NCBI GenBank assembly: GCA_018992685.1
Contig: JACVGT010000004.1
Coordinates: 1 to 42,215, forward strand
Direction of reading: 5' to 3'
Length of the DNA: 42,215 bases
DNA from: Theionarchaea archaeon
Lineage (GTDB): Archaea > Methanobacteriota_B > Thermococci > Methanofastidiosales > SZ-28-30
In this document: piece after piece, positions 13,875 through 39,384 of the stretch
Position numbering within the stretch: the stretch's first letter is position 1
Layout: each line of letters begins with the position of its first letter
The notes under the pieces: generated by a model
Told to the model about the DNA's origin: nothing
Databases searched by the model: none
The model's input: the letters and a program-made list of their open reading frames with translations, nothing else
Made by a program: the position numbers and the translations under genes

Positions 13875-13961
13875 CTGGAACGATACAGATGGTGCTACTC
13901 AGAGATATTCCATCGATGAGGAAATACTGAATTGGCATAAACCACCAAGGAGGTGTTGTAC

Positions 13962-14156
13962 ATGAGAATGGAATCGTTGAATGAACCAAACCTTTTGGGA
14001 ATTGAATCAGTGGACACGCCCGGATGGGATGGCATAGCTGTGGAAGACATTTCTTCGCCCTCGGCAACACCCGTTATGGTAAATCCAACGGGAAAATGTG
14101 GGGGCTGTGCGTGCGGATGCTTCGTTGTCAATTGCATGGGCCTTTCCGCATGCTGA
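13962..14156 (+). CDS. Cys-rich RiPP precursor peptide, 64 aa (cluster 1)
   Basis: GGAGGTG RBS at 13949-13955. Acidic leader and core KCGGCACGCFVVNCMGLSAC with six Cys. Lies directly upstream of four rSAM/SPASM genes. Confidence 0.85.
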   Translation: MRMESLNEPNLLGIESVDTPGWDGIAVEDISSPSATPVMVNPTGKCGGCACGCFVVNCMGLSAC

Positions 14157-14202
14157 GGCGACTCCAGGATTTCTGCAACACTGCCGATAGGAGGGCTAAA
14201 AA

Positions 14203-18347: not shown

Positions 18348-18363
18348 AGACGTATTGAGAGTG

Positions 18364-20151: not shown

Positions 20152-20288
20152 CACGTACCGCTTGATACATCCATACAGATCAAGGAGTGGGCAGAACTGG
20201 CTGCTCCCTGATATAAGAGACCCGGGCAGTTAACCTGAACAGATGTGCATGACAAGAACGCCTCCCTCTACCTGGGCCTGACGCATTT

Positions 20289-21290
20289 TCAGGTCATCAT
20301 TTCATCTTTCCGGCTTTGGCAGGTCTGATTCTCACAGTATGCAAGCTCTTTCTCATAGACTATATCCTCTCTCAAGGTCTCAAACCCTAGTGAGCCATAG
20401 AGATCGAGCGCTTGAGGATTCTCTGCATCGACATTAAGGTGTATGGTTGCTATACCTTCCTGCGAAAGCCACTTCACGGCATGGGATATCAGAGCTCTGC
20501 CAATACCTTTTCCGCGGTACAATTTAGTGACACCGAGTAAGCGCACCATTCCTGTCTTCGTGTTATTTTCTCCATTTCTTGGAGGCTGTACACCGTACGC
20601 ACAAAAACCAATAGTCTTGAAACCATCTTTGGCAAAAGTGACTCTAGCTGATCCTGTGCTGGTATCCCTGGATCTGGCGAGTTGCTGTACTGTCATGGGG
20701 GAGAAATTGTAGTGCTCCGAAAAGGCGTCGTTGTAGGTCTCCACAAAGATCGTTAGCTCCTCATCAGTGACTTCCTGGATCATTTTATGTTCCAAGTAAA
20801 TGCTATCCGGGGGCCGATAGACATGTGGTTCCCCGTTCTTCTTCCATATCATCATGTATCCATGTCGAACATCTTTGAAGCCAAACTCTCGGGCGAGATC
20901 ATGTCTCCACCCCTTTGTGCCCATGCAGTACTGCTGAACAGTGTGTACTCTTTTTGAGACGAGATATTCCAGCGAAAGCAGCATCATGTGCTGCTCTATT
21001 CCTTTGCCTCTATGCTCTGGGACTACTTCCACACCTGCCCACGCATTGTTCAGTCCCATGTCTATGTGGGATTCATGGACATCTCCTCCCCCATATCCCA
21101 CTGCTTTGTTGTCTATTTCAGCCAGCCAATGGCTCTCTGGATCGTAATCTGTTTCTTCCAGGACGTGAAGGCAGAACTCCTGGGCAGTGACCTGCCTCTG
21201 CCGTGGGAAGTCCGCATTGGAGCGATTCAGAATATCGACAATAGCTGCTGCGTCGGCTTTGGTAGGATGTCGATACTCGATGTATGACAT
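20289..21290 (-). CDS. Tandem-GNAT acetyltransferase
   Basis: Two acetyl-CoA binding motifs (VVPEHRGKGI and LGVTKLYRGKGIG) and ENPQALDLYGSLGF. Confidence 0.88.
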   Translation of the reverse strand: MSYIEYRHPTKADAAAIVDILNRSNADFPRQRQVTAQEFCLHVLEETDYDPESHWLAEIDNKAVGYGGGDVHESHIDMGLNNAWAGVEVVPEHRGKGIEQHMMLLSLEYLVSKRVHTVQQYCMGTKGWRHDLAREFGFKDVRHGYMMIWKKNGEPHVYRPPDSIYLEHKMIQEVTDEELTIFVETYNDAFSEHYNFSPMTVQQLARSRDTSTGSARVTFAKDGFKTIGFCAYGVQPPRNGENNTKTGMVRLLGVTKLYRGKGIGRALISHAVKWLSQEGIATIHLNVDAENPQALDLYGSLGFETLREDIVYEKELAYCENQTCQSRKDEMMT

Positions 21291-21396
21291 GCATTGCAGA
21301 GAATAACACAGGTAATAAGCATTTCGGTGGGGCTGTGTAGCTCTTTTTGCCAGAAATCTTTATAAGCACAGCACGTAAGGGAAGTGAGGATTCTCA

Positions 21397-23650: not shown

Positions 23651-25891
23651 ATGGACGACAATGGATCAGGGTTGGAAGGAACTAGCGAAGCAGGCGAATT
23701 CGAGTTCTTAGAGGGCATACCTGCAGGTGCCTATGAGGTCGATAAGGAAGGGAATTTCTTGTACTGCAATCAGGAGGCAGCCCACCTGCTTGGATATGAT
23801 TCTGCAGAAGAGTTATCACAAAAGAATATCTATGATCTCTATTTTGATAGAAATGACCGAGAACGGGTATTAGAAAGGACGAGAACCCTTGGAGGTCGGA
23901 TGAAAAGTTACATCCGGTGGAAGCGGAAGAACGGATCTGAAGTGGTGGTCAATGATTTTGCTGAGTTTGTCTGCAACAAAAGGGGTGAAGAATCCGGAAT
24001 TCGTGGCATCTTCGTCGAGGCCACATATGAGCGGTTGTTTGATGATCTTAATGCAGGAATATACCGGGTGGGCCCCGATAACAAGACTATCGAGCTGGTC
24101 AACAAGGCAGTTGCCAGAATCTTTGGATTCAACTCGCCCGAAGAAATGAGAGGATATGACATCTCAAAACTCTACAGATATCCAAAGGATTATCGGGAAT
24201 TCATGGAGTATCTTGAGAAAAATCAGAAAGTAGAGAATTATCCCCTGGAGATGAAAAGAACAGACGGAGAGCCTGTCATTATATCAGTGAGTTGTCACGT
24301 ACTGCAAAATAAACAGGGAGAGATCGTTGGAAGAGAAGGTACATTTACGGATGTCACAGAGCAGCAGAGATATAGAGAATTGCTGGAAATACCATTGGGA
24401 GTCTACGAGGCCAAAATAAAGGATGGCAAGCCGATTATCATCTTCTGTAACGAGAAATTCATTGAGATGTTTGGCTATTCGTCGGAAAAGGAGTTGATTG
24501 GCAGGAATATTCATGAACTGTATGCTAACGAAAAGGACGTTGAACAGTTCGAAAAAGCTTTGAAGGAAGCTGACGAAGAGAACAAGCCTCTCGACTATTT
24601 ACTGAAGGTAAAAAGGAAAGCAAGTCAAAAGGAAGGGGGAGAAAGAGAGGAATTTTGGATCAAGATATATTGCTATCCAAGAGAAGATGAAGAAGGAAAT
24701 ATTATTGGCAGAATAGGAACTGCCATGGATGTTACCGATAGAATGGAACTGGAGAGGATTATCGAAACAAGAAAGGACATACAGAGGTTCATTCACGGAT
24801 TCATTGCGCCAATGATGAGCATTCATGCCACAAGCCAGGTTGTGGCCAGGGAAGTTGAACGTGGAATTGGCATCAGATATGGTCTTGAAGACATGGTGAG
24901 ACTTCAACGGAAAAAACGTAACACGATGCATCTTTTTGATGAGATGAGGACTACATCTGAGGCTCTGGCAGAAAAAATTGGAAACCTCATTACACTGGGT
25001 CGACTTGAACCGGCATTTGATGAAAGACACATCCATGAATTGACGAACATAAAGAACAGTGTGGAAAGAGAAATCACAGACATTGTGCGAAGGATCATTG
25101 AAGTGAGAAAACTACACAAGGATACTTACAGCAAATTGAACGACGTTCTTGCATTCATCAGAACTGAAAGAAGAATTGAAAATAGCAGAGAACTTTCAGA
25201 TCTAATCAAGTTGTGTTTCATTGATCTCGACGAATTAGATAGTACCTACTTACTGTATTTAACGCAGAGCATCCTGAATAAATCCAAAATTGCCTATCAT
25301 GACGTAGAAGGGCTTCGTCAGCTTATGATGAGGGTTGGGGACGAACACATCGAACAGCTCTTCGAATTCCAGCCTACAAACCTCTTAGATATGGTTGAAG
25401 ATACAATTGATATGTATCGGATTGATGCATCCCTTAAAGGCATTTTAATTCGTTCTCCCCGAGGGAAGATACCAGAGGTCGACGTTTCTCGGAGTCACCT
25501 GGAAAGAATGCTCTCGTATGTCATCCAGAATGCAGTAAAATACTCTTTCAAGAGGGATGGCTATATTCATGTTGATTTCAGGGTGGGAGGGGATTCTGTC
25601 CAAATCGATGTAGAAGATTATGGAGTTGGTATTCTTCACGAAGAAATCGAATCCGGCAAAATCTTCGAATACGGATATAGGGGAAAATTCTCCCGTGATC
25701 GTAACAGGACCGGATCAGGCATTGGACTTTCTGAAGCCAAGAGGATTTCTGAGGCCCACGGTGGACATATCAAAGTAGAAAGCGCGCCTGTGGGCGATCA
25801 TGGAGAGGTCATAACTCACAACACACCTCATAAGACGACAATTTCCATATTTCTGCCGATAAGGCAAGAAAAGGGTGATTTGAATGGTTAG
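23651..25891 (+). CDS. Soluble multi-PAS sensor histidine kinase
   Basis: Three PAS/PAC repeats, H-box-like FIHGFIAP, N box NAVKYS, G1 DYGVGI and G2 GSGIGL. TTTATAAA at 23623-23630 suggests a leaderless mRNA. Confidence 0.9.
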   Translation: MDDNGSGLEGTSEAGEFEFLEGIPAGAYEVDKEGNFLYCNQEAAHLLGYDSAEELSQKNIYDLYFDRNDRERVLERTRTLGGRMKSYIRWKRKNGSEVVVNDFAEFVCNKRGEESGIRGIFVEATYERLFDDLNAGIYRVGPDNKTIELVNKAVARIFGFNSPEEMRGYDISKLYRYPKDYREFMEYLEKNQKVENYPLEMKRTDGEPVIISVSCHVLQNKQGEIVGREGTFTDVTEQQRYRELLEIPLGVYEAKIKDGKPIIIFCNEKFIEMFGYSSEKELIGRNIHELYANEKDVEQFEKALKEADEENKPLDYLLKVKRKASQKEGGEREEFWIKIYCYPREDEEGNIIGRIGTAMDVTDRMELERIIETRKDIQRFIHGFIAPMMSIHATSQVVAREVERGIGIRYGLEDMVRLQRKKRNTMHLFDEMRTTSEALAEKIGNLITLGRLEPAFDERHIHELTNIKNSVEREITDIVRRIIEVRKLHKDTYSKLNDVLAFIRTERRIENSRELSDLIKLCFIDLDELDSTYLLYLTQSILNKSKIAYHDVEGLRQLMMRVGDEHIEQLFEFQPTNLLDMVEDTIDMYRIDASLKGILIRSPRGKIPEVDVSRSHLERMLSYVIQNAVKYSFKRDGYIHVDFRVGGDSVQIDVEDYGVGILHEEIESGKIFEYGYRGKFSRDRNRTGSGIGLSEAKRISEAHGGHIKVESAPVGDHGEVITHNTPHKTTISIFLPIRQEKGDLNG

Positions 25892-26289: not shown

Positions 26290-27666
26290 GTGGTAGTCAA
26301 GAGGTGGAATGCAACAATCTTTTTCTTCATTGTTCTTACCATAGGCCTTGTTATTGTGACAATGTTCAAGTGGGACGGGAGAATCCCGTACCAGACTGAT
26401 TTGATACTCATCGGGTTTATTGGATCGCTCGCCACTATATCGGCTCTCATTTTCACGATTCCTCTCTTTTTCAGAAGTTCACGAGAAGGAACCATCTACC
26501 CCGGGACAGACGAAAACCTGGTTATTTGTTACTTGTTGATGTTCATACTGGGCATTTTTTCAAGTCTTCTTACGCTCTTCATTGAAAAGAATACGGGGGT
26601 TTTTGTAGGTTTTTTGGGCAGGGACTTTGAGCTAGGATTATTCTTTTTCAAGTTGAGTGTGGTCATCTTTTTGATCTGTCTTGTCTGGCTAGTTCCCTAC
26701 CTTTTCATATTCCTCAGGAGAGATTCGTTGAAAGTGATAGCTCATCTCAGGAATTCCATTCTTGACAAGGTGAGTCATGTCTCCCAGAGGGATGCGAGAA
26801 GGACAGAAGAGGCCATAAAGAAAGAGATTAACCGGTTAGAAAGGGTCATACTGCAGGTACTGAGCAGTCACAACTACATAGCACTGGACTATGGTATTTC
26901 GAGTCTCATGGACATAACGGGCACGATCATCGGGAAACCCAGAAAGCGTAGTAGATTCATGAGGATTCTTGAAAAAGCTTTGAGAGAGTCTCCCGCAAAC
27001 AATACAGTCGGGAATACCCTTCTAAAAGAGATCATGAGATCATTTCGTGATGTGAGCATTGCTTGTATTGAATGCAGGTCTGATGAGTATTCGCGGCGAA
27101 TTGGAAAGTACATGAAGGAAGTCATTATGGACGGACTGAGAACGAGACAGAATCTTGAATATCCAAACCTCGTATTGAATATTGAACGACTGGGAGCTCA
27201 AGCTGCGAGGAACAACCTTGAAGAGACCACAGATGAAATCCTCAACAGTCTCGGTCAAATAGGTGATCAGAGCATTACAGTCGATTTGCTTCGTTCTCCA
27301 ATTAAGGCTGTTCTTAAGGGTCTTCAAGAGATCGCAATCGTGTGTACAGAGGAGAAAATGGTCTGTCAATGTGCTACAGCGAGAACCCGGATTCTGGGAA
27401 TTGCGCGACGAGGGGGCGCACCCATACAAGAGGAAGCATTGAGACGGTTCTGGGTGGTGACTGCCTTCATGTACAGGAATATTCCGGAAATTACAGAAGC
27501 CAGCTACGGGCTGGAGACTATGTTGGGAAGAGAATTTGGCAGTCTGTTTTTTGAACAGCTTAACGAGTCACTCGAAATGCTTCATAGGGAAAGCGAATGG
27601 GTAAGAAAACGAATAGTCAGGGTGTTCATGAACTCAGCAGAATTCTCCACGATTCGTGCAGAGTAG
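26290..27666 (+). CDS. Uncharacterised membrane protein (about 4 N-terminal TM helices and a helical cytoplasmic domain)
   Basis: Long ORF translationally coupled to the receiver gene, with a hydrophobic N-terminal third. Confidence 0.75.
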   Translation: MVVKRWNATIFFFIVLTIGLVIVTMFKWDGRIPYQTDLILIGFIGSLATISALIFTIPLFFRSSREGTIYPGTDENLVICYLLMFILGIFSSLLTLFIEKNTGVFVGFLGRDFELGLFFFKLSVVIFLICLVWLVPYLFIFLRRDSLKVIAHLRNSILDKVSHVSQRDARRTEEAIKKEINRLERVILQVLSSHNYIALDYGISSLMDITGTIIGKPRKRSRFMRILEKALRESPANNTVGNTLLKEIMRSFRDVSIACIECRSDEYSRRIGKYMKEVIMDGLRTRQNLEYPNLVLNIERLGAQAARNNLEETTDEILNSLGQIGDQSITVDLLRSPIKAVLKGLQEIAIVCTEEKMVCQCATARTRILGIARRGGAPIQEEALRRFWVVTAFMYRNIPEITEASYGLETMLGREFGSLFFEQLNESLEMLHRESEWVRKRIVRVFMNSAEFSTIRAE

Positions 27667-27833
27667 CTGAAGGAATCTGAATCGTGTGTGGGGTGCTGCA
27701 CTGAATTGTGTGATTACAACACCTACGTGGTCGGTTGATGAAAACCTGGACTACTCTCTTCTGCTCAGGCCCTCCCCGTGATGATCTCTATCGTTGTCCA
27801 AACATTTTTATAGACATCAGAACTGGGAAAACC

Positions 27834-28754
27834 ATGGACATAGAATATACATATCAGTGGAAGGAGGACTGCATGTCCCTTTTCAATCATCTCATCACTT
27901 CTGCTGAAGAGAAATTCGAGTTTGCTGAATGGTGGAGACTACGAAAGGAGTCGTTGGTGAATGGGGACATCGGGATAATAATGGCCAGCAGGGAGGGGAC
28001 TCCAGCAGGATTCATAACATATCTTGTTCAAGATGGTATTGGGAAACTTGAGGCGTGTCATGTTCTTGACGTACCTGAAAGGCAGGACATAGCTGTGGGG
28101 CTCCTTGAGCGAGGGATTGGACTCTTGAGGAAGCGAGACGATCTTATGGGTATTTCAGGTGAATTGTATTACATTGCAGGATCAATAGATCCCCTTGCTG
28201 AATACCTGAGAAAAGAAGGCGCCACTGTGTATATTCGCGTTGGCATGATCAGAGCACTTGATGATACGATACCTGTGCATGTGCTGCCCAAAGGGTACTC
28301 GCTACGAGAGTGGACATTCAATGACATACCTGAAGTAGCAGCGTTTTTTTGCCAGGCATTTGAGGATAGCATCGATCTGGTCTTCTGGGAGCACTTTGAC
28401 CACTTGGAAAAGGCTATCACTTATATTGAGAACGTTGCCAGCAGCACTGTATGGTCTCATGTACCCTTGACGAACGCGAGCATCTCCTATAATGGTCAGA
28501 TGTGCGCAGCAACATTGTGCGGTGTACCTGAGAAGAACAAAGGAGCAATCTACCTGGGTGTAATCCGTGAACACAGAAGAAAAAGATTAGGCAGCTTCTT
28601 GCTGGCGCAAGCACTCACAGCATTTAAGAATGCTTCTTTCAAGACAGTTGGCCTTGAAGTGACCCATCGCAATACGGCAGCATACCAGTTTTTCAGAAAC
28701 CACGGGTTCAGAGACAGTCATCGTCTTATCGGCTACACGTTTTTTTCACGATAG
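27834..28754 (+). CDS. Tandem-GNAT acetyltransferase
   Basis: Motifs LGVIREHRRKRLG and NTAAYQFFRNHGF, with a degenerate N-terminal GNAT. Start placed at ATG 27834, about 25 nt after TTTTTATA. Confidence 0.85.
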   Translation: MDIEYTYQWKEDCMSLFNHLITSAEEKFEFAEWWRLRKESLVNGDIGIIMASREGTPAGFITYLVQDGIGKLEACHVLDVPERQDIAVGLLERGIGLLRKRDDLMGISGELYYIAGSIDPLAEYLRKEGATVYIRVGMIRALDDTIPVHVLPKGYSLREWTFNDIPEVAAFFCQAFEDSIDLVFWEHFDHLEKAITYIENVASSTVWSHVPLTNASISYNGQMCAATLCGVPEKNKGAIYLGVIREHRRKRLGSFLLAQALTAFKNASFKTVGLEVTHRNTAAYQFFRNHGFRDSHRLIGYTFFSR

Positions 28755-29204: not shown

Positions 29205-29222
29205 GGGAAAAGCTTATAAATA
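29205..29222 (+). promoter_or_regulatory. BRE/TATA promoter of the cluster 2 precursor
   Basis: GGGAAAAG-CTTATAAATA, about 70 nt upstream of ATG 29291. Confidence 0.6.
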
Positions 29223-29290
29223 CTTAGGGTAATTCTAACAACGGAATCTAGGTCAGATTCTGTAGCACAAAATCAACGGAGGTGAAACCA

Positions 29291-29377
29291 ATGTATGCAA
29301 AACCCATGCTGGAAGAGATTACTGTTAGGATTACAGCTGACAAGTGGCTCATTAGTCTGCCTGCTTTACCCTACTAA
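29291..29377 (+). CDS. Unannotated 28-aa RiPP precursor MYAKPMLEEITVRITADKWLISLPALPY (cluster 2)
   Basis: Hand translation. GGAGGTGA RBS at 29278-29285, YxxPxL leader motif, its own promoter and T-rich terminator. Directly precedes the rSAM and PqqD genes. Confidence 0.85.
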   Translation: MYAKPMLEEITVRITADKWLISLPALPY

Positions 29378-29393
29378 GCCAACCAACGCTGTA

Positions 29394-29420
29394 TTTCTTT
29401 ACTTTCTATTTTTTTTATTT
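29394..29420 (+). terminator. T-rich archaeal terminator/attenuator after the precursor
   Basis: TTTCTTTACTTTCTATTTTTTTTATTT, beginning about 16 nt after the stop. Confidence 0.55.
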
Positions 29421-29473
29421 CCAATTAAAGAAATCTCTCTTAATCAGAATTCCTTGGATACTGGACGAGCCAG

Positions 29474-30613
29474 ATGAATGTACAGATGGCAGAAGAAAGT
29501 GGTGCAATGAACAAAGGTGGACTTAGTTTTGCGGACTGGGATGTCACCCCGCACTGTAACCTCAATTGCAGACACTGCTATGCAACATCTCTGTACAGAG
29601 GAAACCAGACAGAGCTGTCCACAGAGGAAATGATGTGCATTCTGGAGAATCTCTGTCGTCTGCCTGTTGCAAATATTGGGATGTTTGGAGGAGAACCTCT
29701 GCTCCGAAAAGACCTTGTACAGATAGTGCAGCAATGTGCCCATAAGAATTCGAATCCATATATCATAACCAATGGACTCCTTCTCACTCAGGACCGATTG
29801 GAATCGTTAATAGAAGCAGGACTCAAAGGCGTTGCAGTGAGTATTGACGGGGCCTCCGAAGAGACCTATTCATATATTCGTCGGGGAAGTGACTTTGGCG
29901 TGGTGACTCGGAATGTGTCAGTCATCAACACATATTCTCTTGAATCACTCGTGATGGACGTGGTCGTTTCAAAGATCAATGCCCACGAGATTGCAGCACT
30001 CATTGGGATGGCCAAGAACTTGGGGTTCACCCGGGTTATACTGGAAATGCTATCTTATCAGGGAAATGCAGCTACAATGGAACGCAGTGTTATCCTTTCT
30101 CCTCTGGAATTCATTCATCTCGCCGAGACTGTCGTTGAAACCCTTATTCAGCTTGACATGAGTTGTGAATTCGTTACCATGTTGTTCGCCATGCCCCCCT
30201 TGATTGACTACTTGAATGATAAGTATGATACTCATCTGCCAAGAGAGCCAAAGAAATGCGCCGCTACAATTTCAACTATATTCATCCGCGCTGACGGGAC
30301 TGCTTATCCCTGCAAAGGTGCAATCCCGGACATGACTCTCAAGGATCACGATGTATATGTCAGTCACGGCAGCAGTCTCCTCGAGAACAGTATTATCGAA
30401 ATCCTGGGCTCTGAGGATTTTGAGCGATTGTTTTATATGCAATCTCCAAATATGATAGCAGAATATCTCCCGAAATGCAGTGATTGTGATTTCTTCCCCA
30501 AAATATGCGTACCATGTCCGATTGCTGCCATGGACCCAGGGAAGGAATTTGCAGAGATCTGCGAGGACTATCCTGTAGGGAGGATTTGTGAAGAGATAAG
30601 GTGTATGAGGTGA
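29474..30613 (+). CDS. Radical SAM/SPASM enzyme without a fused RRE (PqqE/MftC-like architecture)
   Basis: Motifs CNLNCRHC, FGGEPLLR, ITNG, SIDG, CAA...IRADGTAYPC and CSDC..FPKICVPC. Start may be 29486 or 29507. Confidence 0.9.
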   Translation: MNVQMAEESGAMNKGGLSFADWDVTPHCNLNCRHCYATSLYRGNQTELSTEEMMCILENLCRLPVANIGMFGGEPLLRKDLVQIVQQCAHKNSNPYIITNGLLLTQDRLESLIEAGLKGVAVSIDGASEETYSYIRRGSDFGVVTRNVSVINTYSLESLVMDVVVSKINAHEIAALIGMAKNLGFTRVILEMLSYQGNAATMERSVILSPLEFIHLAETVVETLIQLDMSCEFVTMLFAMPPLIDYLNDKYDTHLPREPKKCAATISTIFIRADGTAYPCKGAIPDMTLKDHDVYVSHGSSLLENSIIEILGSEDFERLFYMQSPNMIAEYLPKCSDCDFFPKICVPCPIAAMDPGKEFAEICEDYPVGRICEEIRCMR

Positions 30614-30619
30614 AAAGAA

Positions 30620-30895
30620 ATGGAAGATACAGCTAGACCAAAAAAGGTTCCACACGTCCGGCCGCGTGAACAGGGGGACGATCTGGCCCTCTTTAATGTG
30701 ATGACTGCCCAGTACTTTGTGGTCAACGAAGTTGGACGTGAGATCTGGAACCTCTGTACAGGCGAGCTTACTGTCAAAGAGATTGCGCAGGAAATTCACA
30801 CCAGAATAGAGGGTGCTCCTTCATTTGAAGAAGTCCTGACTGACGCCAAGGAACTGATTGAGGATTTGAAGAACAACAATCTGGTGACAGTCTAA
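30620..30895 (+). CDS. Stand-alone PqqD-family RiPP recognition element (RRE)
   Basis: 91 aa with YFVVNEVGREIWNLCTGELTVKEIA...DAKELIEDLKNNNLV. Confidence 0.92.
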   Translation: MEDTARPKKVPHVRPREQGDDLALFNVMTAQYFVVNEVGREIWNLCTGELTVKEIAQEIHTRIEGAPSFEEVLTDAKELIEDLKNNNLVTV

Positions 30896-30916
30896 CCAAA
30901 GAAGGAGGAGATCTGA

Positions 30917-32254
30917 ATGACAGACATTACCCTCGTAAATGCAGTGATCGGTGCAAGCAGAGGGCAGCTGGGCATTGGCCTGCTGTATATAGTTGCATCT
31001 CTGGAAGAAGCAGGGTATTCCGTGGAGTTCACGGACTACCAAAATGAGGATGTGAAGAGAAAAGCAGATCCAAAGGTGCTTGCGCAGTTTATGAAATCTT
31101 CTGCATCAGTTATCGGTATTAGTGTTTTCTGCAATGCACTGCCCTCCGTGATAAAGGCTGTGAACCTCCTGAAAGAGAGACAGGACGTAACAGTTATCCT
31201 CGGGGGACCTGCTGCCTCTGTGAGTACAGAACGAATCCTTGAACTCTCTGAGGTTGACATCGCAGTCATTGGTGAAGGCGAAAGGGCTATTGTGGAGATC
31301 ATGGAGGCTCTGGATACGGGCAGGTCCCTCGATTCAGTAAGGGGCATCTGCTACAGAGACAACGGCCACGTTGTAACCACACCGGAGCGAGAACGAATTG
31401 CCGATCTGGATTCCGTCCCCTTTCCGGCTTATCACCACATCGATTTTGGAGAATACAGGAGGGAGGCGAATCTGATAACCGCCAGGGGATGCCCCTTCCG
31501 GTGTACCTTCTGTGTCAAATCTATTTGGAAAAGCAGGAAAACATTTCGTTCTATTGAGAATGTTATAGAGGAATTACTGCAAATCGAAGGGAGTATTGAC
31601 AGGATCAATTTATCTGATGACACCTTCGTTCTTGAAAGGGAGAGAGTACAGGAATTCTGCGAACACCTCAAGAAAGAAGGCATTGACAAGGACTGGTCTT
31701 GCACGGGCAGAGTCGGCATGTTGCCGGATTCGCTCATGGAATCCATGCACCGCGCGGGATGCGATACCATGTTTCTAGGAATAGAATCAGGGTCGAGCTC
31801 TATCCTCAAGAAGATAAAAAAGGATTTTACCCCGGAAGAGGCAAGGAGAGATATTGCGCGGGCGAGACAGCACTTCGACAGGATTTACACGTCCTACATG
31901 TGGGGATTTCCTGAAGAGTCTCTGGATGATTTCTATGATACCATGATGTTTCAGATGGAAGATGTCCAGATTCCAGGAGTCCAGCCAGTCATGACCCTCG
32001 TGACGCCATTTCAGTCCACGACACTGTACAGTGAATATTCCCACACCATCAAATTCATGACAGACAACACATATAATGGGTCCACATTACCACCACCTGA
32101 AAGGCTGAGAGGCTATCCTGAACTAGAGGATCTGGTAAGGAAGAATCCAGATGTGTTCAGCTCATTCTATTATTACGAGAATGAAGGATTTGAGGAAAAA
32201 TGCACACTAGTTGACAAGATAAGGGAAAGAGAGAAGAGTGAGGGATCTGCATGA
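30917..32254 (+). CDS. Cobalamin-dependent radical SAM enzyme (class B methyltransferase-like), paralog A
   Basis: B12 domain (ILGGP, GEGE), ARGCPFRCTFC, DDTF, GIESGS and WGFP. Confidence 0.9.
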   Translation: MTDITLVNAVIGASRGQLGIGLLYIVASLEEAGYSVEFTDYQNEDVKRKADPKVLAQFMKSSASVIGISVFCNALPSVIKAVNLLKERQDVTVILGGPAASVSTERILELSEVDIAVIGEGERAIVEIMEALDTGRSLDSVRGICYRDNGHVVTTPERERIADLDSVPFPAYHHIDFGEYRREANLITARGCPFRCTFCVKSIWKSRKTFRSIENVIEELLQIEGSIDRINLSDDTFVLERERVQEFCEHLKKEGIDKDWSCTGRVGMLPDSLMESMHRAGCDTMFLGIESGSSSILKKIKKDFTPEEARRDIARARQHFDRIYTSYMWGFPEESLDDFYDTMMFQMEDVQIPGVQPVMTLVTPFQSTTLYSEYSHTIKFMTDNTYNGSTLPPPERLRGYPELEDLVRKNPDVFSSFYYYENEGFEEKCTLVDKIREREKSEGSA

Positions 32255-33651
32255 GCGATATACTGATTGTAAACTCGGGATTTGGTGAATATAGACCGGG
32301 TCTTCCCATAGGCCCCTTGGAGATAGTCTCTGTTCTGGAAGAGAATGGATTCTCGGTGGATTTCAAAGACTATCAACTTCATGACCCCACACACCACCCG
32401 GACCCGGATGAATTCTACTCCTTCATGAATCCCACATCAGACATTGTGGGTATCAGCGTCATCTGCAATGCACTGCCAACAGTCCTGGGTGCTGTGGAAA
32501 AGCTGAAAGAAGAGCATCCGGATACGCTGGTGATTTTGGGAGGACCTGCTGCCACCGATGTGGGAGGAAGGATCTTGGAGTGCTATCCTGTTGATGTCAT
32601 CGTCATGGGAGAAGGCGAATACACGACGGTGGAATTGGTGGAAGCCCTGCAAGAGGGGACTCCGCTGGATCAGATCAAGGGCATCGTCTACAGGGAGGAT
32701 GGCCGAGTCATAATCAACCCGCTGCGGGAAAGAATCAAGAACCTGGATTCCCTACCGTTCCCTGCGTATCATCATGTCAACTTTGCTGACTATCAGAAGC
32801 TGGCCTGCATTATGAGTGCACGTGGATGCCCTTACGATTGTGGGTTCTGCAGTGCGCATTCCATCTGGCAGCGTCACATGGAGTACAGATCAGTGGAAAA
32901 CATAGTTGAGGAAGTCCTGCAGGTGGCGGACGATTCCATCATGCTCGGATTCCTCGATGACACGTTTGTCATACAGAAAAAACGCGCTATGGATATTATA
33001 GATGCAATCCGCGCTGAAGGTGTGGACCTCCCCTATACATGCAATGGAAAAATAACGTTAATGGATGATGAACTCCTGATGAAACTCTCTGAAACAGGAT
33101 GTTTCCAGCTCTTCTATGGTGTCGAGTCCGGATCCAATAGAGTCCTTCAGATGCTGCATAAAGGACACACGATAGAACAGGCACGAGAGGTTATACGAAA
33201 GACCGTGACCTACAACTTTGAACGGGTACGTACCTCGTACATCTGGGGGTTTCCCTTTGCGACCCTTGAGGAGTTTTATGACACACTGATGTCCATGGGA
33301 GAGGACATTCGCCTCAAGAAGGCAGTTACCCAGATGTCACTTCTCTCTCCATTGCCGAGTTCGCCAATTTTCCAGGGGCACAGCCACCTCCTGAACTTTG
33401 ACGCCACAATTCAGTCCAGAGCCGGTGGTCTCCCGATCAAACAGTCGTTAAAGAACTATCCTCGTGTCATTGAAATGATCAAGGAACATCCGCATGTTTT
33501 TTCGAGTTTCTATTATTATGATCATCCAGAATTCAGAAAGAAACTGGAGACAATTTCCAAGATAGACTGGAAGATCTGGGAAGTTGAGAGTGAGGAGGAA
33601 CTCCTTAAAAAGAAACAGAATCCTGAGGCAAGAGGGGGATCAGAGGAATGA
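32251..33651 (+). CDS. Cobalamin-dependent radical SAM enzyme, paralog B
   Basis: Motifs ILGGP, GEGE, ARGCPYDCGFC, DDTF, GVESGS and WGFP. ATGA overlap with paralog A. Confidence 0.9.
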   Translation: MSDILIVNSGFGEYRPGLPIGPLEIVSVLEENGFSVDFKDYQLHDPTHHPDPDEFYSFMNPTSDIVGISVICNALPTVLGAVEKLKEEHPDTLVILGGPAATDVGGRILECYPVDVIVMGEGEYTTVELVEALQEGTPLDQIKGIVYREDGRVIINPLRERIKNLDSLPFPAYHHVNFADYQKLACIMSARGCPYDCGFCSAHSIWQRHMEYRSVENIVEEVLQVADDSIMLGFLDDTFVIQKKRAMDIIDAIRAEGVDLPYTCNGKITLMDDELLMKLSETGCFQLFYGVESGSNRVLQMLHKGHTIEQAREVIRKTVTYNFERVRTSYIWGFPFATLEEFYDTLMSMGEDIRLKKAVTQMSLLSPLPSSPIFQGHSHLLNFDATIQSRAGGLPIKQSLKNYPRVIEMIKEHPHVFSSFYYYDHPEFRKKLETISKIDWKIWEVESEEELLKKKQNPEARGGSEE

Positions 33652-34526
33652 GATACTCAGCAGAAAAGTATCCCCTCCAGGTCCGGATAATGACGCTCGT
33701 GGCCTCCGTTCTTTCTCATCCCATCTGTGGTAAGGTAACAGGAGTGCTTCTGATGGCTATCCCTCTCAGCGTCATACTCTTTCAAATTGCATCCTCTTTC
33801 TCAATACCCCGCATGTCCACTGTGTTGCTGGTGATACCCCTGACCTACGGTGGTCTTTTTCTGGCGGCATTCCTCCATGAGATGGGACATGTTGCTGTCC
33901 TGCGATCTCTGGGGTGCAGGACAAGAACACAGGTCCTGTACAACTACCACAATCCCCTGCTCCTCTTCAACATGCGTACAGAAATGACAGAAGATCATCC
34001 CATACATTCCTCCACAATCTTTCTACTGAAACGAGGACTTTCAGGTATCTCGGTGAATATTTTGCTGAATGTAGTGTTTCTTGCACTGTCTATTCACTAC
34101 CATAATGTATTCTTTGGTTATCTTGCGTTTCTTCAGGGATTTGGCTCTCAAGGGGCTACGTCTCTGTCTCCCACCACAGGAGATTCAGACGTACGCACAC
34201 TGGTCACTGCAATCGAAGTCCGTGATGAACTGACCGCCACTTTAGAGGAGAAGGATGATCTTGTTTTGGATATTAAGGTAGGGATATTTCTTAGAAACGT
34301 GATCGAGACTACCTACTGGATTCTGGTTGAAGGATTGGACATTTCACATGCAGAACACAAGAATTTTTTGGCATTTGACGTACCGGGTGGCATTATGTTC
34401 TTACTGCGCTGTCTTGAGCAGGATTCTCTCACTCTTACTATACATGGAACCTCTTCAAGGGACATAACCATATATACGAGGGGAGGCAGAATTCTCTCAA
34501 TTCCTGCCAGTTCAAAGGAGGTGTAG
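33648..34526 (+). CDS. M50/site-2-like intramembrane zinc peptidase, candidate leader peptidase
   Basis: HEMGH (HExxH) at the end of a TM helix. SGISVN resembles AGPxxN and SLSPTTGDSD resembles NxxPxxxxDG. Confidence 0.65.
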   Translation: MRYSAEKYPLQVRIMTLVASVLSHPICGKVTGVLLMAIPLSVILFQIASSFSIPRMSTVLLVIPLTYGGLFLAAFLHEMGHVAVLRSLGCRTRTQVLYNYHNPLLLFNMRTEMTEDHPIHSSTIFLLKRGLSGISVNILLNVVFLALSIHYHNVFFGYLAFLQGFGSQGATSLSPTTGDSDVRTLVTAIEVRDELTATLEEKDDLVLDIKVGIFLRNVIETTYWILVEGLDISHAEHKNFLAFDVPGGIMFLLRCLEQDSLTLTIHGTSSRDITIYTRGGRILSIPASSKEV

Positions 34527-34528
34527 TT

Positions 34529-35773
34529 GTGACTACTAAAGTAGAAAATCCAAACCAAAAAGGAACAGAAGAGAAGAAGAAATCCACGATCCTCAGGGAC
34601 AAGAATTTCTTATTGCTATGGGCTGGGCAAGGAGTATCTCAGGCAGGAGATTGGATTTATCTCCTTGCTATGGTTTCTTTTGTTATTGCCCTGACAGGCT
34701 CCGCTGCAGTAACGGGGACCGTCTTGATGGTGATGGTGATCCCACAGATTTTCTTGGGTCCGATAGCAGGAAGCTATGCTGATAGGTGGAGCCGCAAGAA
34801 ACTCATTGTGTGGATGGATGCAGTGAGAGGAGTGGTTACCCTGTATCTTGGATGGCTCGTGGTGAATGATAGCTTGACACTTCCTGTTCTCTACGTGGGG
34901 ACAGCTATCATGTCAGTGGCTCAAGTTTTCTTCAACCCTGCATTGAGGGCATCTATTCCAACTATTGTTCCCGAAGACGAATTGAATCGTGCAAACAGCC
35001 TGATAGGAATGACATCGAAGATTTCTGGCGTCATAGGACCCGCAGTTGGTGGTGTTCTGGTGATAACCCTGGGCATTCCTTTGGCTTTCATTATCAACGG
35101 GCTATCGTTTTTGTTCTCTGCTTTTTCAGAGTCTTTCATCACAATACCCCTGGTCAGACGCGAAGGCCCGGAAAAGCATATCCTGGCGGACATGAGGGAA
35201 GGGTTCCAATTCATCAAAGAAAAAAAGGCCATTCTGGGTATTATCATAATCCTGGGAGCAATGACGTTCTTTGCAGCACCCCTGGTGATCGTTTTCAAGA
35301 TTCTATCTCAGACCTACTATCACATGGGTGATATAGGATACGGATTTCTGATTAGCGCAGATTCCCTGGGTATTCTGGTGTCAACGTTCATCCTTGCTGT
35401 CAAACCGACGATAGAAAACAAATCCAGAGTTCTCATCTTGTTCCCCATTGTGGCTGGGTTGACGTTGCTGGGAATTGGCACAGTGATAAACTTCTACTTT
35501 GCCGTGGCTCTCATGGCTATTCAGGGAATTATCAGCGGATTTGGTGAGATCGTCATAATCACTCTTCTTCAAACGCTGACTCCGAATGAAAAACGTGGCA
35601 AGGTGTTTGGCGTCTATGTTACGATGACCATGGCACTGGTTCCCATATCCTATGCTATCCTGGGTGCTCTCATTGACATGACATCTGTCCTCACCATGCT
35701 ACTCATCTCGGGGAGTGCGCTCATTATTGGAGGAATTTGTATCTCCTTCGTCCCGGGTATCAGAGAACTTTAG
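34529..35773 (+). CDS. MFS exporter (macrolide-efflux/DHA3-like)
   Basis: Motifs NFLLLWAGQGVS, GSYADRWSRKK, FNPA and GPAVGG, with 12 TM. RBS GGAGGTG. Confidence 0.9.
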   Translation: MTTKVENPNQKGTEEKKKSTILRDKNFLLLWAGQGVSQAGDWIYLLAMVSFVIALTGSAAVTGTVLMVMVIPQIFLGPIAGSYADRWSRKKLIVWMDAVRGVVTLYLGWLVVNDSLTLPVLYVGTAIMSVAQVFFNPALRASIPTIVPEDELNRANSLIGMTSKISGVIGPAVGGVLVITLGIPLAFIINGLSFLFSAFSESFITIPLVRREGPEKHILADMREGFQFIKEKKAILGIIIILGAMTFFAAPLVIVFKILSQTYYHMGDIGYGFLISADSLGILVSTFILAVKPTIENKSRVLILFPIVAGLTLLGIGTVINFYFAVALMAIQGIISGFGEIVIITLLQTLTPNEKRGKVFGVYVTMTMALVPISYAILGALIDMTSVLTMLLISGSALIIGGICISFVPGIREL

Positions 35774-35913
35774 GAGAAATCTTTCGACTTCATTTTTCCT
35801 CTTTTTTACTTCGTGGAGATTATGAGCGTGCACAGCAGGGCTTTGTGAGAAGACGTGGGCTGCCACCTGGTATCCATCAACCTGCTGCTGGATTCAAGCA
35901 AGGAATCGGAAAA

Positions 35914-37266
35914 TCAGGATTCTTGGGCTCTTAACATATTCTGCTCCATGTTCTTGAACAGTTCCAGTTTCTGTTGGAGCAAATCGTGAGAAAAGTAGTA
36001 GAAGGATGGGAAGAGTTCAGGATATTTCTTGACCAGTGCAACCACTTCGGAGTATTGAAGGAGTTTTTCCCTGCCCAGCAGAAATCCGAGCCGATGGGCA
36101 ATTTCAGGGTCATTGGGAAATTTGATGTGGGCCTTGTATTCCATGTAGATGGTGGACTTTGGCAAGGGGGAAAGCAAAGCGAGCCGAGGTTTCACATGAG
36201 GCATGTTGGCTTGTTGAAAGACGGCCATCAGTGTGTCGTAGAAATCTTCAAGCGTCTCAAAGGGGTATCCCCAGATATACGATGTCTCCACATCTGTGTA
36301 GTGCGTCGTCTTCTCTATGACTCTTGAAGCTTCCTCAATTGTGAATTTTTTGTTGACCTTTTTCAAAACATTATTGGAGCCAGATTCTATTCCATACAAT
36401 ATCTCCCTGCACCCATTCTTGCCCATGACTTCCAGCAATTCCGGAGTCATCAAATTAATTCTTCCGTAACAGGTCCATGGAATGTCTATACGTTCTTCAT
36501 GAAGCTGTTCTGCAAAGTGAACAACTCGTTTCGGGTCAATCACGAAGGTATCATCATAGATGAACATGTTCTTGACTTTCTTTTCTTTCAGGATCTGGAG
36601 TTCTCCAATGACATTTCCCACACTTCTTTGAGTTATCTCTCTTTCCCACACAGAATGAGCGCTGCAAAAAGTACACCGATAGGGACATCCGCGGATCGTC
36701 ATCACCCCACCAACATAGTCGTAATCTCTGAATTCGATTTTGTCATATGCTGGGAACGGCAGGGAGTCAAGGTCTTGGATGCGCCTCCTCCGTGGAGTAA
36801 GGATAGTGTGATCATGCTCTCTATATGCAATGCCATCGATTTTCTCAAGGCTCCTGCCTGTGTCAAGGGCCTGCATTACGTCCAGTATTGTCTCCTCTCC
36901 TTCACCCACGACAACAATGTCTACAGGAAAGTGCTCCAGTATCTCTACAGGAATATCTGTAGGACCAGGTCCTCCCAGGATGATGATCTTATCTGGATGT
37001 TCGTTCTTCAGTTGCGCGACTGCTCCAAGCGTGGTAGGCAAGTCACTGCTAATGGCACTTATTCCTACGATTCTTTCAGGGACCTCTATGAACCCATGGA
37101 ACGTGTCAAAACCGAGTTTCTTCTGGGCTTGGTACGTCTGGTAGTCCTTGAATCGAACACTGTATCCATTAGCCTCAAGGACAGCAGTAATGAGCAGGGG
37201 GCCCACGGGAATGGCACCCTGACTGTGCTCGACCTGTGACGCATTGATGATGCTTATGTCACTCAT
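35914..37266 (-). CDS. Cobalamin-dependent radical SAM enzyme, paralog C
   Basis: Motifs ILGGP, GEGE, IRGCPYRCTFC, GIESGS and WGYP. Start placed at MSDISIIN (37266) after GGAGG, matching paralogs A and B. Confidence 0.9.
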   Translation of the reverse strand: MSDISIINASQVEHSQGAIPVGPLLITAVLEANGYSVRFKDYQTYQAQKKLGFDTFHGFIEVPERIVGISAISSDLPTTLGAVAQLKNEHPDKIIILGGPGPTDIPVEILEHFPVDIVVVGEGEETILDVMQALDTGRSLEKIDGIAYREHDHTILTPRRRRIQDLDSLPFPAYDKIEFRDYDYVGGVMTIRGCPYRCTFCSAHSVWEREITQRSVGNVIGELQILKEKKVKNMFIYDDTFVIDPKRVVHFAEQLHEERIDIPWTCYGRINLMTPELLEVMGKNGCREILYGIESGSNNVLKKVNKKFTIEEASRVIEKTTHYTDVETSYIWGYPFETLEDFYDTLMAVFQQANMPHVKPRLALLSPLPKSTIYMEYKAHIKFPNDPEIAHRLGFLLGREKLLQYSEVVALVKKYPELFPSFYYFSHDLLQQKLELFKNMEQNMLRAQES

Positions 37267-37824
37267 AATGTTCTCCTCCGTCTTTGTTATTCGGGTAGCT
37301 GTGAGGGGAGCCTGAACAAGGTAAATCCTCTCTCTGTGGTATTTTGCTGTAAGCCTTTTAAGTTTTTGCTCACGTACTATTCCCATCAAGAATATGGAAA
37401 TAGTCAACTGAGTCCTTCAGGAAATCTTAATGTATGTTACATGAAGAGCGACTTTGGTTACAGAGTGAAACAGAACGAAAGAAGGTATGATGGTAGGATT
37501 TCTTTCTCTACAATCTCAGCAATTCTAATATCTTCCAGTTGAAACTATTAGAAAGTGATCCTTTGTCCAGAACAGGAAGAAAATACACTGTGGGAAAAGA
37601 AATCTGAGGATTCTCTATCCCCTTAGGAAAAATCAAGCTGTGAAAATGTACATAATGCATCAAAAAGAACGCAGCATCCGCCCCACAGTTCTGGAGCAAT
37701 ATTCGTGGACTCTTCTCAAGGGTAAAACGGTGGAAAACCTTATATATAGAAGGGAGTATCTTGAGTAAGAACTTACATCATAAATATGCAAGTTCTTATA
37801 TAAAAAGTTAAGGAGGTGAAAATA

Positions 37825-39384
37825 ATGAGGATAAGTCGAAAGGTTTTATTTCTAGCCACGCTACTCTTACTGCTTTTTTCCTTCGCTGCAGCTGGCCAAG
37901 GATCCCGGAAAATAACTCTTCATGTACAGACAATGGGATACAAGGGAAGAGATCTTCTGGTAGTACAGGCTGAAATCACGGGGGAAGACCACGACTCATT
38001 CTTGGTGACCATCAGCAGAGACACCTTGTGCAAGATAGAAAAGGAGATCAACATTGAGAGATTGCCTGTTGTGAGAGTCAGTGAAACCACAGTGAAGGTT
38101 CCCAAGGATTACCTTGTTGAGATCAGCCCATCTGAATTTGTGGCTACGGTCCCCAATGATGTGGCCAGAATCAGGTGGAACCTCAGAGACAGAATGATCA
38201 ACACAAGCCCTGATGAAAAACTGCGTGTCATTGTCATGTTCAAAAATGGAAAGAATGTTTCGTTGCTCAGGAAATATGGTACTATTGTCTATGAATTTGC
38301 CAGTGGATTGGGAGCTACCGTCGATATCCCTGCTTCTCGCGTCAATTTGCTCTCTGAAGACCGTGCAGTGCTTTTCCTGGAAGATGATTTTGACGTACAG
38401 GTCATGTTGTCACAGAGCGTACCCTTGATTAATGCAGACGATGTATGGAACATGGGTTATGATGGCTCAGGTGTCAAGATCTGCCTCATCGATACGGGCA
38501 TTGATCCTAACCATTGTGATTTTCCCAGTGGAAAAATCATAGCCTGGAGAGATGTTGTGAACTCCAGCACGACCCCCTACGATGACCATGGTCACGGTAC
38601 ACATGTTGCGTCCATTGCTGCGGGAGAGACCTCGCCAAAGGGTGTGGCGCCTGGGGCTTCTCTCATGTGCTTCAAGGCAGTGAATTCCAGCGGATCATCT
38701 ACTGCAACCCAGGTCATTCAAGGTGTTGACTGGGGCGTGTACAATGGAGCTGATATCGAGAGCCTTTCCATTGCCACGTCCACAGGCTGCAATGATGGGA
38801 CCAGTTCGATGTCTCAGGAGTGCAACTGGGCCGTTGACCAAGGTGTCGTGCTGGTGGTGGCTGTTGGAAACGGCGGAAACGTGTGTACTATCGGTATACC
38901 TGGAGATGCGGAAAAGGTTATTACAGTGAGTGCCTGTGACAATTCTAAGAATCTGGCATCTTTCTGTTCAAGAGGGCCAACCTGTGATGACAGGGCTAAA
39001 CCAGATGTCGTGGCACCCGGAGTATCTGTGTATGCTGCTGATGCTGGAACGTCCTGCAGTAACGTTGCCATGTCTGGAACGTCCATGTCGACGCCTCATG
39101 TTTCAGGGATTGTTGCTCTCATGCTTGATGCACGACCTGGCTTGACCCCTCTGCAGGTCAAGAACGTACTGGGATTCACTGCAACAGACATGGGAACTGA
39201 AGGAAAGGATCTCAGCTGGGGCTGGGGTATCGTTGATGCATACAATGCTGTGAATCAGGCGCTTTACAACCCGAATGTAACTCCTCCAGCCCGTACTGAA
39301 TGGTGTGCTGGCTGCTGCGGGTGTCTAGGAACGGTGTTGATCGTATTCATGGTTCTCGTGGGAAGTGCAGTCACACTACGTTAG
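37825..39384 (+). CDS. S8 subtilisin-like serine protease with signal peptide, prodomain and C-terminal membrane anchor
   Basis: Catalytic triad motifs IDTG, HGTHVA and SGTSMS. GGAGGTGA RBS. Ends GCLGT plus a hydrophobic helix. Confidence 0.92.
   Translation: MRISRKVLFLATLLLLLFSFAAAGQGSRKITLHVQTMGYKGRDLLVVQAEITGEDHDSFLVTISRDTLCKIEKEINIERLPVVRVSETTVKVPKDYLVEISPSEFVATVPNDVARIRWNLRDRMINTSPDEKLRVIVMFKNGKNVSLLRKYGTIVYEFASGLGATVDIPASRVNLLSEDRAVLFLEDDFDVQVMLSQSVPLINADDVWNMGYDGSGVKICLIDTGIDPNHCDFPSGKIIAWRDVVNSSTTPYDDHGHGTHVASIAAGETSPKGVAPGASLMCFKAVNSSGSSTATQVIQGVDWGVYNGADIESLSIATSTGCNDGTSSMSQECNWAVDQGVVLVVAVGNGGNVCTIGIPGDAEKVITVSACDNSKNLASFCSRGPTCDDRAKPDVVAPGVSVYAADAGTSCSNVAMSGTSMSTPHVSGIVALMLDARPGLTPLQVKNVLGFTATDMGTEGKDLSWGWGIVDAYNAVNQALYNPNVTPPARTEWCAGCCGCLGTVLIVFMVLVGSAVTLR

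Follow-up and report, generated by a model that had tools for sequence, protein, structure and literature searches.

The stretch analysed here (the window) comprises 42,215 nucleotides of contig JACVGT010000004.1 (positions 1 to 42,215, forward strand; assembly GCA_018992685.1) from a member of the archaeal class Theionarchaea, and it carries, at positions 29291-37266, a small peptide gene and an operon of radical S-adenosylmethionine (SAM) enzymes, as a preliminary description of the same DNA had observed. Window proteins were compared with Pfam and NCBIfam profiles, and all Pfam assignments given here lie above the cut-offs. The peptide gene (29291-29377, plus strand), recognized by sequence reading and conservation, encodes 28 amino acids (MYAKPMLEEITVRITADKWLISLPALPY). 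It is followed on the same strand by a radical SAM/SPASM enzyme of 379 amino acids (29474-30613; Radical_SAM 83.6 bits, Fer4_12, and SPASM 25.7 bits against a cut-off of 21.5), a stand-alone PqqD-type recognition element (RRE) for peptides that are made by the ribosome and modified after translation (RiPPs), of 91 amino acids (30620-30895; PqqD 45.5 bits, cut-off 23.4), and two B12-binding radical SAM enzymes with B12-binding and Radical_SAM domains, B1 (445 amino acids; 30917-32254) and B2 (466 amino acids; 32251-33651, overlapping B1 by 4 nucleotides). The operon ends with a membrane protein of 292 amino acids that has an invariant HExGH motif and no Pfam hit above the cut-off (33648-34526) and an EntS-like major facilitator superfamily (MFS) transporter of 414 amino acids (MFS_1/MFS_3; 34529-35773; MFS_1 114.7 bits). 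The downstream genes overlap by 4 nucleotides or are separated by gaps of 2 to 21 nucleotides. A third B12-binding radical SAM gene, B3, with the same two domains, runs convergently on the minus strand from 35914 to about 37266 or 37281; its start is probably the ATG at 37266 (MSDISI...), where the preliminary description had placed it. The radical SAM/SPASM gene may, judging by the position at which most homologues begin, truly start at the ATG at 29507. The gene-level part of the preliminary description (radical SAM/SPASM, PqqD/RRE, class B radical SAM enzymes and exporter) agrees with the Pfam calls.

Signals expected of a gene surround the small open reading frame (ORF). A Shine-Dalgarno octamer, GGAGGTGA (29278-29285), stands 5 nucleotides 5' of the ATG, and a putative TATA-like promoter element (29205-29224, GAAAAGCTTATAAATAC, with GCTTATAAATAC at about 29211-29223) lies roughly 70 nucleotides 5' of it. 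A T-rich tract at about 29394-29422, between the precursor and the radical SAM/SPASM gene, is a candidate archaeal oligo-T terminator or attenuator. All three had been pointed out in the preliminary description and are present in the sequence. Two of them lie within blocks that are kept in G001, a genome of the same genus: the TATA-like element falls inside an identical block next to intergenic sequence that diverges, and the T-rich tract is identical up to the point where the bases 3' of it diverge. The GGAGGTGA octamer is also found 5' of homologous peptides at loci L102, L103, and L024, and L023 carries AGGAGGTG. A scan for sigma-70 promoters and hairpin terminators gave nothing near the ORF, a result that an archaeal host would lead one to expect and that has no evidential weight.

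The ORF is shorter than the length at which genes are normally called, and the copy in genome G002 lacks an ATG at the aligned start; both points favor a chance open frame in the promoter region, an explanation whose probability we nevertheless regard as practically nil. G001 holds the whole cluster in identical order, including the convergent B3, and its peptide reads MYAKPRLEEITVRITADKWLISLPAVPY. Between the two genomes the frame shows 10 synonymous sense-codon changes, together with a switch of the stop codon from TAA to TAG, versus 2 nonsynonymous changes; in the two other frames 12 and 13 of 27 residues differ, and stops are present. Further points against a chance frame are the seven gene contexts with nine distinct peptide sequences, the strong ribosome-binding sites 5' of each copy, and a peptide profile that finds exactly one strong copy per genome in all five genomes searched (per-genome E-values of 2.4e-17 to 9e-9). 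As far as sequence evidence reaches, the chance explanation is excluded, and by its codon changes the 28-codon ORF is a genuine conserved gene under purifying selection, in keeping with the earlier proposal that a gene was hidden here.

Neighborhoods were collected by scanning genome and metagenome contigs with an alignment of the radical SAM/SPASM enzyme, a check that had been suggested earlier and that indeed revealed a conserved short ORF 5' of the operon. A homologous peptide accompanies every homologue of at least 32% identity, namely those of G001 (82%), L024 in G002 (48%), the metagenomic loci L103 (47%) and L102 (42%), and L023 from the metagenome-assembled genome (MAG) of a Tissierellales bacterium (32%). 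Together with the window and a cluster in genome G227, these make seven gene contexts, which include two genomes of the Tissierellales order. The peptide gene lies directly 5' of the radical SAM/SPASM gene in all except L102, where it stands ahead of PqqD and four B12-binding radical SAM genes. The peptides read MEYKKPEINEISISISTDKWLVSLAPVAAK in L023, VTYERPTLNEVEINIKADKILMSIHVC in L102 (as annotated, with a GTG start), and MKYRTPALEEVEVTVKADKIVMSTSAVCA in L103, which is at a contig end. The second bacterial cluster (genome G227, locus L187, same order as the Tissierellales MAG) was reached independently, via the HExGH protein; its gene order is identical, and its peptide, KYVKPSIKEISVCITADKWLLSLKQLAD, is preceded by a GTG codon and was recovered at an E-value of 9e-9 per genome by a profile made without it. 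In G002, which is 84% complete, only the first part of the cluster is present, at the edge of a contig; the precursor copy there has ATA at the aligned start and a long tail, since its frame (L024 9837-9992, G002:C31) continues across the T-rich tract and stops shortly before the radical SAM start.

A six-frame search with the motif [YF]..P.[LIVM].E[IVL].[IVL].[IVL] over 181 loci (2.03 Mb, counting only matches in ORFs shorter than 120 amino acids) gave matches only in nine loci representing six clusters (window, G001, G002, L023, L102, and L103), and no such peptide was found in the remaining 172 loci. In addition, a profile search of a set of 5.8 billion proteins, with an alignment headed by the natural 51-amino-acid ORF of L024, returned five annotated but unnamed peptides of 27 to 30 amino acids (P0059-P0063), two of which show new tails (...STSVVCA and ...SIHVAE). 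Six of six peptides compared with Pfam and NCBIfam showed no family match at an E-value of 10 or better.

The peptides align without internal gaps, and Y2, P5, E9, and S22 are invariant in seven of seven. Position 7 is L or I; positions 10, 12, and 14 are I or V; position 16 is A or T, followed by D or S at 17 and K or R at 18; positions 19, 20, 21, and 23 are restricted to W/I/F, L/V, I/L/V/M, and L/I/T, respectively. The YxxPxL motif noted earlier in the window peptide is thus conserved across the family as YxxPx(L/I), with both Y and P invariant. Free variation is limited to the last 3 to 6 residues, even between near-identical peptides (PALPY/PAVPY, SAVCA/SVVCA, and HVC/HVAE). This places the core suggested in the preliminary description, DKWLISLPALPY, mostly within the conserved block, and its label "Cys-free" is correct for the window peptide but does not extend to the family, in which the tails HVC, SAVCA, and SVVCA contain Cys.

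We observe a fixed set of genes in all five fully readable clusters (window, G001, G133/L023, G227/L187, and L102), each having the small ORF ahead of a radical SAM/SPASM enzyme, a PqqD protein, at least two B12-binding radical SAM enzymes, an HExGH protein, and an MFS transporter, in line with what had been proposed for the window. The position of the transporter is identical in G001, L023, L187, and L102. The last of these (L102 4053-14617, from a GC-rich metagenome) comprises, in order, the peptide, PqqD, four B12-binding radical SAM enzymes, the radical SAM/SPASM enzyme, a fifth B12-binding radical SAM enzyme, the HExGH protein, and the transporter. The cluster had been described as archaeal, but it is not specific to archaea, since the same order is found in two genomes of the Tissierellales order. 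Its spread is narrow when followed through the HExGH family: 2 of 133 genomes in the archaeal class and phylum set (the window genome and G001), 2 true matches among 401 genomes of the Tissierellales-level order, and 1 of 399 genomes scored in the class of that order. The sequencing runs that hold the window DNA are metagenomes of marine, estuarine, and mangrove sediment. A rare and patchy distribution, combined with a shared gene order in Archaea and Clostridia at 32% identity of the radical SAM/SPASM enzyme and with a conserved peptide, points to cross-domain horizontal transfer. In GC content the cluster matches its surroundings and so does not look recently imported into the window.

Orthologues of the PqqD protein occur in G001, L023, L187, and L102. 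The YxxPxL motif binds the RRE in lasso peptide leaders, and the PqqD protein would likewise bind the YxxPx(L/I)xE(I/V) segment. When the RRE was co-folded with the precursor in a 31-residue in-frame version, a check proposed in the preliminary description, the score was 0.33 versus 0.02 for the best of three controls, with runs sharing at least 78% of contacts and a partner predicted local distance difference test (pLDDT) value of at least 51. The pair thereby reached a mark that 58 of 80 solved complexes attain, as do 2 of 110 mismatched pairs; it lies, however, in the score range up to 0.60, where the mark is reached by just 7 of the 80 solved complexes and by both passing mismatches, so that its support for binding is weak. 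The pass may also reflect likeness to known structures, because RRE-leader complexes have already been solved.

The radical SAM/SPASM enzyme has the signature expected of its class, with a CX3CX2C motif (CNLNCRHC) and the invariant C-terminal cysteines C280, C335, C338, C345, C348, C363, and C372. Its relatives are few: among 36 matches at an E-value of 1e-10 or better in the 5.8-billion set, only eight reach at least 31% identity, and against NCBIfam equivalog models it scores far below every cut-off. The nearest solved matches are GDGT-MAS, SkfB, MoaA, and PqqE by sequence and SkfB, PqqE, BlsE, MoaA, and SuiB by fold. The structure model (pLDDT 73.8, below 50 in the SPASM part) gives general SPASM/twitch matches only and thus no hint of the chemistry, and an ESM Atlas look-up returned generic radical SAM/SPASM clusters. 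Two tandem radical SAM/SPASM genes with 27 to 29% identity to the window enzyme are present on another contig (G000:C3:84586-86824, L018).

The number of B12-binding radical SAM enzymes varies: each bacterial cluster has two copies, each of the two Theionarchaea has three, and L102 has five. All three window proteins exceed the Pfam cut-offs for PF02310 and PF04055, and the CX3CX2C motif is kept in all 13 cluster paralogues. In a tree of these 13, B1 groups with its counterparts from G001 and the Tissierellales cluster (support 100/99), and B2 does so likewise (92/91); both bacterial branches are long, and the tool flagged their placement as unsure. On this tree B1 and B2 appear to be positional orthologues across the archaeal and bacterial clusters. 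B3 is absent from the two bacterial clusters, but G001 has it at the same place. Within the window genome it is most similar to B2 (46% identity, 2.2e-128) and B1 (43%, 3.5e-112), with all others at 32% or less. Being a close paralogue of the operon copies, as had been recognized before, and holding the same position in G001, B3 belongs to the cluster in this lineage. The best NCBIfam model for the B12-binding enzymes is ApyD (168 to 176 bits against a cut-off of 750), a peptide C-beta-methyltransferase that is reported to beta-methylate a Tyr of a RiPP (10.1101/2023.10.30.564719). By analogy, the enzymes are most likely C-methyltransferases. On another contig of the window genome (G000:C18:31404-37363), four more B12-binding radical SAM paralogues are clustered, with 31 to 32% identity to B3.

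Two of these comparisons could suggest that the enzymes act on an archaeal or bacterial lipid or on a cofactor, in which case the small ORF would encode a regulatory leader peptide or have nothing to do with the chemistry: among solved structures, the radical SAM/SPASM enzyme is by sequence closest to the lipid enzyme GDGT-MAS (5.6e-24), and the B12-binding enzymes score on the lipid and cofactor models HpnJ (hopanoid), BchE, and lipid B12/radical SAM, below cut-off, much as they do on ApyD. By fold, however, GDGT-MAS ranks no higher than the peptide maturases SkfB, PqqE, and SuiB, and a PqqD peptide-binding protein is present in five of five complete clusters. The protease-like protein and the exporter are equally fixed parts of the cluster, and the sequence of the peptide itself is kept between Archaea and Clostridia despite the divergence of the radical SAM/SPASM enzyme to 32% identity. 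We consider a nonpeptide substrate highly improbable.

The HExGH protein defines a small and sharply bounded family: 1.84 billion proteins yielded 18 representatives, every one at an E-value of 1e-10 or better and none weaker. Those with a name, among them a homologue from Clostridium sp. 19966 and another from a Bacillota MAG, are annotated as "hypothetical protein." Residues H77, E78, G80, H81, N137, and D181 are invariant in 14 members. In the AlphaFold2 model (pLDDT 91.8), a core resembling M50/site-2 proteases (S2P), at about residues 54 to 192, is joined to a C-terminal beta-sandwich at about residues 190 to 290. Foldseek matched only the beta-sandwich (best E-value, 1e-3), and the S2P likeness was seen by VIA-align, run against 48,161 chains, which ranked an RseP orthologue first (Z 9.7, 133 aligned residues, root mean square deviation 3.6, 20% identity) and also returned SpoIVFB (Z 9.0, 120 aligned), Aquifex RseP (Z 8.5), and S2P of M. 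jannaschii (Z 8.0, 118 aligned, 20% identity), a range for which the tool warns that helix arrangement alone can yield Z values below about 13. The Pfam M50 model is matched below threshold by 9 of 14 members (best E-value, 3.1e-4), with the window protein at 12 bits versus 27.2. From the VIA-align folds and the subthreshold M50 matches we tentatively read the protein as a distant M50-like intramembrane metalloprotease, in line with the HExxH membrane peptidase of the preliminary description. A third match in the Tissierellales-level order, G315 (3.7e-6), was rejected as unrelated, being a 193-amino-acid HExxH protein without radical SAM neighbors.

No named RiPP class fits the cluster, as had been supposed from the start: for each named system tested (lasso, PQQ, mycofactocin, SynChlorMet, daptide, and YydG), all components stay below the cut-off, and the peptides have no family match. 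Lasso peptide clusters are alike in having a YxxPxL motif near the N terminus and a stand-alone PqqD-like RRE (called B1 in those systems); the lasso PqqD models of NCBIfam, though, score 24 to 25 bits here versus cut-offs of 70 to 80, and no lasso B2 protease or cyclase domain is present in any cluster ORF. Scores stay equally far from the cut-offs for the SynChlorMet proteins ScmD (30.2 versus 100), ScmE (73.1 versus 400), and ScmF (69 versus 400) and for the daptide HExxH metalloprotease NF041824 (15.6 versus 300). In polytheonamide-type proteusins and bottromycins, several B12-dependent radical SAM C-methyltransferases act on one ribosomal peptide, and those of proteusins do so together with another radical SAM enzyme. 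The present cluster differs in having no NHLP/Nif11-type leader and a precursor of 27 to 30 amino acids, compared with about 100, and Pfam domain calls revealed no YcaO or other bottromycin gene in it.

The clavusporins of Streptomyces come close in the nature of the peptide. The mpc cluster is reported to encode one B12-dependent radical SAM enzyme that places 7 to 8 C-methylations at unactivated carbons in a leader-dependent manner; a peptidase then cleaves the I/T/V-rich 13-mer, and an MFS transporter exports it (10.1101/2024.01.23.576971). The likeness to the window cluster, as far as that account goes, lies in a short hydrophobic peptide with many Val, Ile, Thr, and Pro residues (clavusporin core KPSVGITITVPFR), an MFS transporter, and a dedicated peptidase, and the alternating I/V-x-I/V pattern resembles ITVRIT of the window peptide. 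The mpc cluster is described there as having a single CX7CX2C enzyme, a DUF5825 partner, and an S9 peptidase, with neither PqqD nor SPASM, in contrast to the 2 to 5 CX3CX2C enzymes, PqqD, radical SAM/SPASM enzyme, and M50-like protease found here. Conversely, CX7CX2C occurs in none of the 13 paralogues, and no DUF5825 or S9 domain occurs in the cluster. In epipeptide clusters (yydFGHIJ/epe), too, a small precursor is accompanied by a radical SAM enzyme, which there targets aliphatic residues, by an exporter, and by an M50 protease within the membrane that serves for release and to which the HExGH protein would correspond; as portrayed in PMC7026026 and PMC10885120, they differ in having no RRE or B12-binding radical SAM enzyme and an ABC transporter instead of an MFS protein. 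The YydG model TIGR04078 gave 15 matches below cut-off in the window genome, none of them at the window radical SAM/SPASM enzyme (E-value of 1e-3 or better); as a side observation, the genome is evidently rich in radical SAM genes.

Likeness to PQQ and mycofactocin comprises a very short conserved precursor, a radical SAM/SPASM enzyme, and a stand-alone PqqD chaperone, and it raises the alternative that residues 1 to 22 are a carrier whose last 3 to 6 residues are modified, cut off by the M50-like protease, and exported as a very small molecule. In mycofactocin and PQQ, as in pearlins, a carrier peptide serves as the base on whose end a small product is assembled, and the observation that only the tail varies freely is compatible with this logic, as is an exporter resembling EntS-type MFS pumps, which transport small molecules. 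Membrane M50 proteases are described in PMC10885120 as releasing epipeptides and, in the case of TglG and TmoG, as freeing modified C-terminal residues from pearlin scaffolds, so that a membrane M50-type protease acting on a modified peptide C terminus would be a further point in common, the likeness to TglG being one of description. Yet the cluster has no PEARL or further pearlin enzymes and no MftD/E/F or PqqB/C-type genes, the pathway-specific downstream genes being replaced by B12-binding radical SAM enzymes, a protease, and an exporter, and the equivalog cut-offs are missed widely by PqqE (TIGR02109, 103.8 versus 381.35), PqqD (TIGR03859, 21.6 versus 46), and MftC (TIGR03962, 85.5 versus 265). 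Moreover, B1, B2, and the radical SAM/SPASM enzyme are orthologous across clusters, yet the tails offer them no common residue or length to recognize. We therefore judge the carrier explanation unlikely. For the same reason, it is less likely that the tail alone is modified than that the targets lie in the conserved hydrophobic stretch following [DS][KR] or in the I/V-x-I/V-x-I/V run.

Taken together, these data favor an operon for an undescribed family of RRE-dependent, radical SAM-modified ribosomal peptides, a reading to which we assign a probability of about 0.72. Its product is probably a small hydrophobic peptide that is methylated, modified in a further way, trimmed, and then exported. 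The cluster is a member of neither the clavusporin, proteusin, SPASM-RiPP, nor epipeptide groups and combines features of all, and it is probable that the RiPP class is new. No description of the cluster was found in full-text literature, a search whose scope left aside supplements and subscription-only papers, so that a mention in a genome-mining table is possible.

Several observations weigh against this reading. The conserved block extends nearly to the C terminus of the precursor, leaving no ordinary hypervariable core by sequence, and there is no single conserved cross-link partner, since D-K can be followed by W, I, or F. The G002/L024 copy may, from its sequence, be a decaying or degenerate gene or a long-tailed variant. 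The radical SAM/SPASM enzyme is without a close characterized relative and has a lipid enzyme as its best solved sequence match, the B12-binding enzymes score similarly on lipid or cofactor models and on ApyD, and the HExGH protein is linked to site-2 proteases by Z values of 8.0 to 9.7, within the range of the helix-arrangement warning, and by M50 matches below threshold.

For an RRE-dependent peptide pathway, we envisage the following course. A promoter of its own and a strong ribosome-binding site would let the 28-amino-acid precursor be produced in excess, with the T-rich tract acting as a leaky stop before the enzyme genes. The stand-alone PqqD protein would hold the precursor by its N-terminal segment, Yxx-P-x-(L/I)-x-E-(I/V), and present the peptide to the enzymes, of which the SPASM enzyme may add one radical modification, such as a cross-link or an epimerization. 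The two orthologous B12-binding radical SAM enzymes would methylate aliphatic residues at unactivated carbons, either in the conserved hydrophobic segment that follows the [DS][KR] pair, in its tail, or in both, with B3 as a third participant in the window archaeon. The S2P-like HExGH enzyme would then cut off the leader at the membrane, and the MFS pump would export the short hydrophobic product. The sequences show the gene and its conservation, the constant gene set, the domain identities, and the rarity of the cluster, whereas leader binding, C-methylation, the site and kind of each modification, the SPASM reaction, the point at which the core begins, cleavage, export, and what the product does are inferred.

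A more far-reaching proposal, which we hold tentatively and at somewhat less than even odds, is that sediment Theionarchaea and Clostridia have exchanged a new RiPP class in which the lasso-like YxxPxL leader and RRE recruit a SPASM enzyme of new chemistry and 2 to 5 C-methyltransferases, a hydrophobic segment of 8 to 12 residues becoming a heavily C-methylated and possibly epimerized or cross-linked, membrane-active peptide that the S2P-like family releases inside the membrane; it would be the first radical SAM/B12 RiPP pathway defined in Archaea. At a more immediate level, the probable substrate of an unstudied radical SAM operon has been identified, with nine natural peptide variants known. 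The combination of RRE, SPASM enzyme, several B12-binding radical SAM enzymes, M50-like protease, and MFS transporter has not been reported together in the literature searched, and the cluster offers new candidate C-methyltransferases, an uncharacterized SPASM reaction, and a protease-like family of its own. Pathways for modified peptides are little known in Archaea, and sharing between Theionarchaea and Clostridia would be a clear case of cross-domain spread in anoxic sediments. In metagenomes, however, it is not unusual to meet undescribed cassettes of radical SAM enzymes and peptides, and any new chemistry of this one is so far a hypothesis.

Upstream of the precursor, the window contains a PAS histidine kinase (23651-25891, plus strand), a 458-amino-acid ORF (26290-27666), and a GNAT acetyltransferase (27735-28754, plus strand), and an S8 subtilase (37816-39384, plus strand) lies divergent from B3. 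The GNAT protein, the 458-amino-acid ORF, and the subtilase were considered as cluster members and set aside because the bacterial clusters lack all three and the contig of G001 stops short of them; neither the subtilase, the GNAT protein, nor the kinase adjoins the bacterial clusters.

Finally, a second block rich in radical SAM genes is located 5' of the cluster (10568-23286, plus strand). It comprises an MFS transporter (10568-11812), a tetratricopeptide repeat protein (12020-13372), two radical SAM genes (14203-15567 and 15494-16975), a further ORF (16872-18347), a fused PqqD-radical SAM-SPASM gene (18301-20151), and a radical SAM protein of 629 amino acids (21397-23286). Directly before the first radical SAM gene, a 67-amino-acid ORF (13953-14156) ends in a Cys-rich tail (…GKCGGCACGCFVVNCMGLSAC), and from its sequence the block looks like a separate RiPP cluster of the thioether type.

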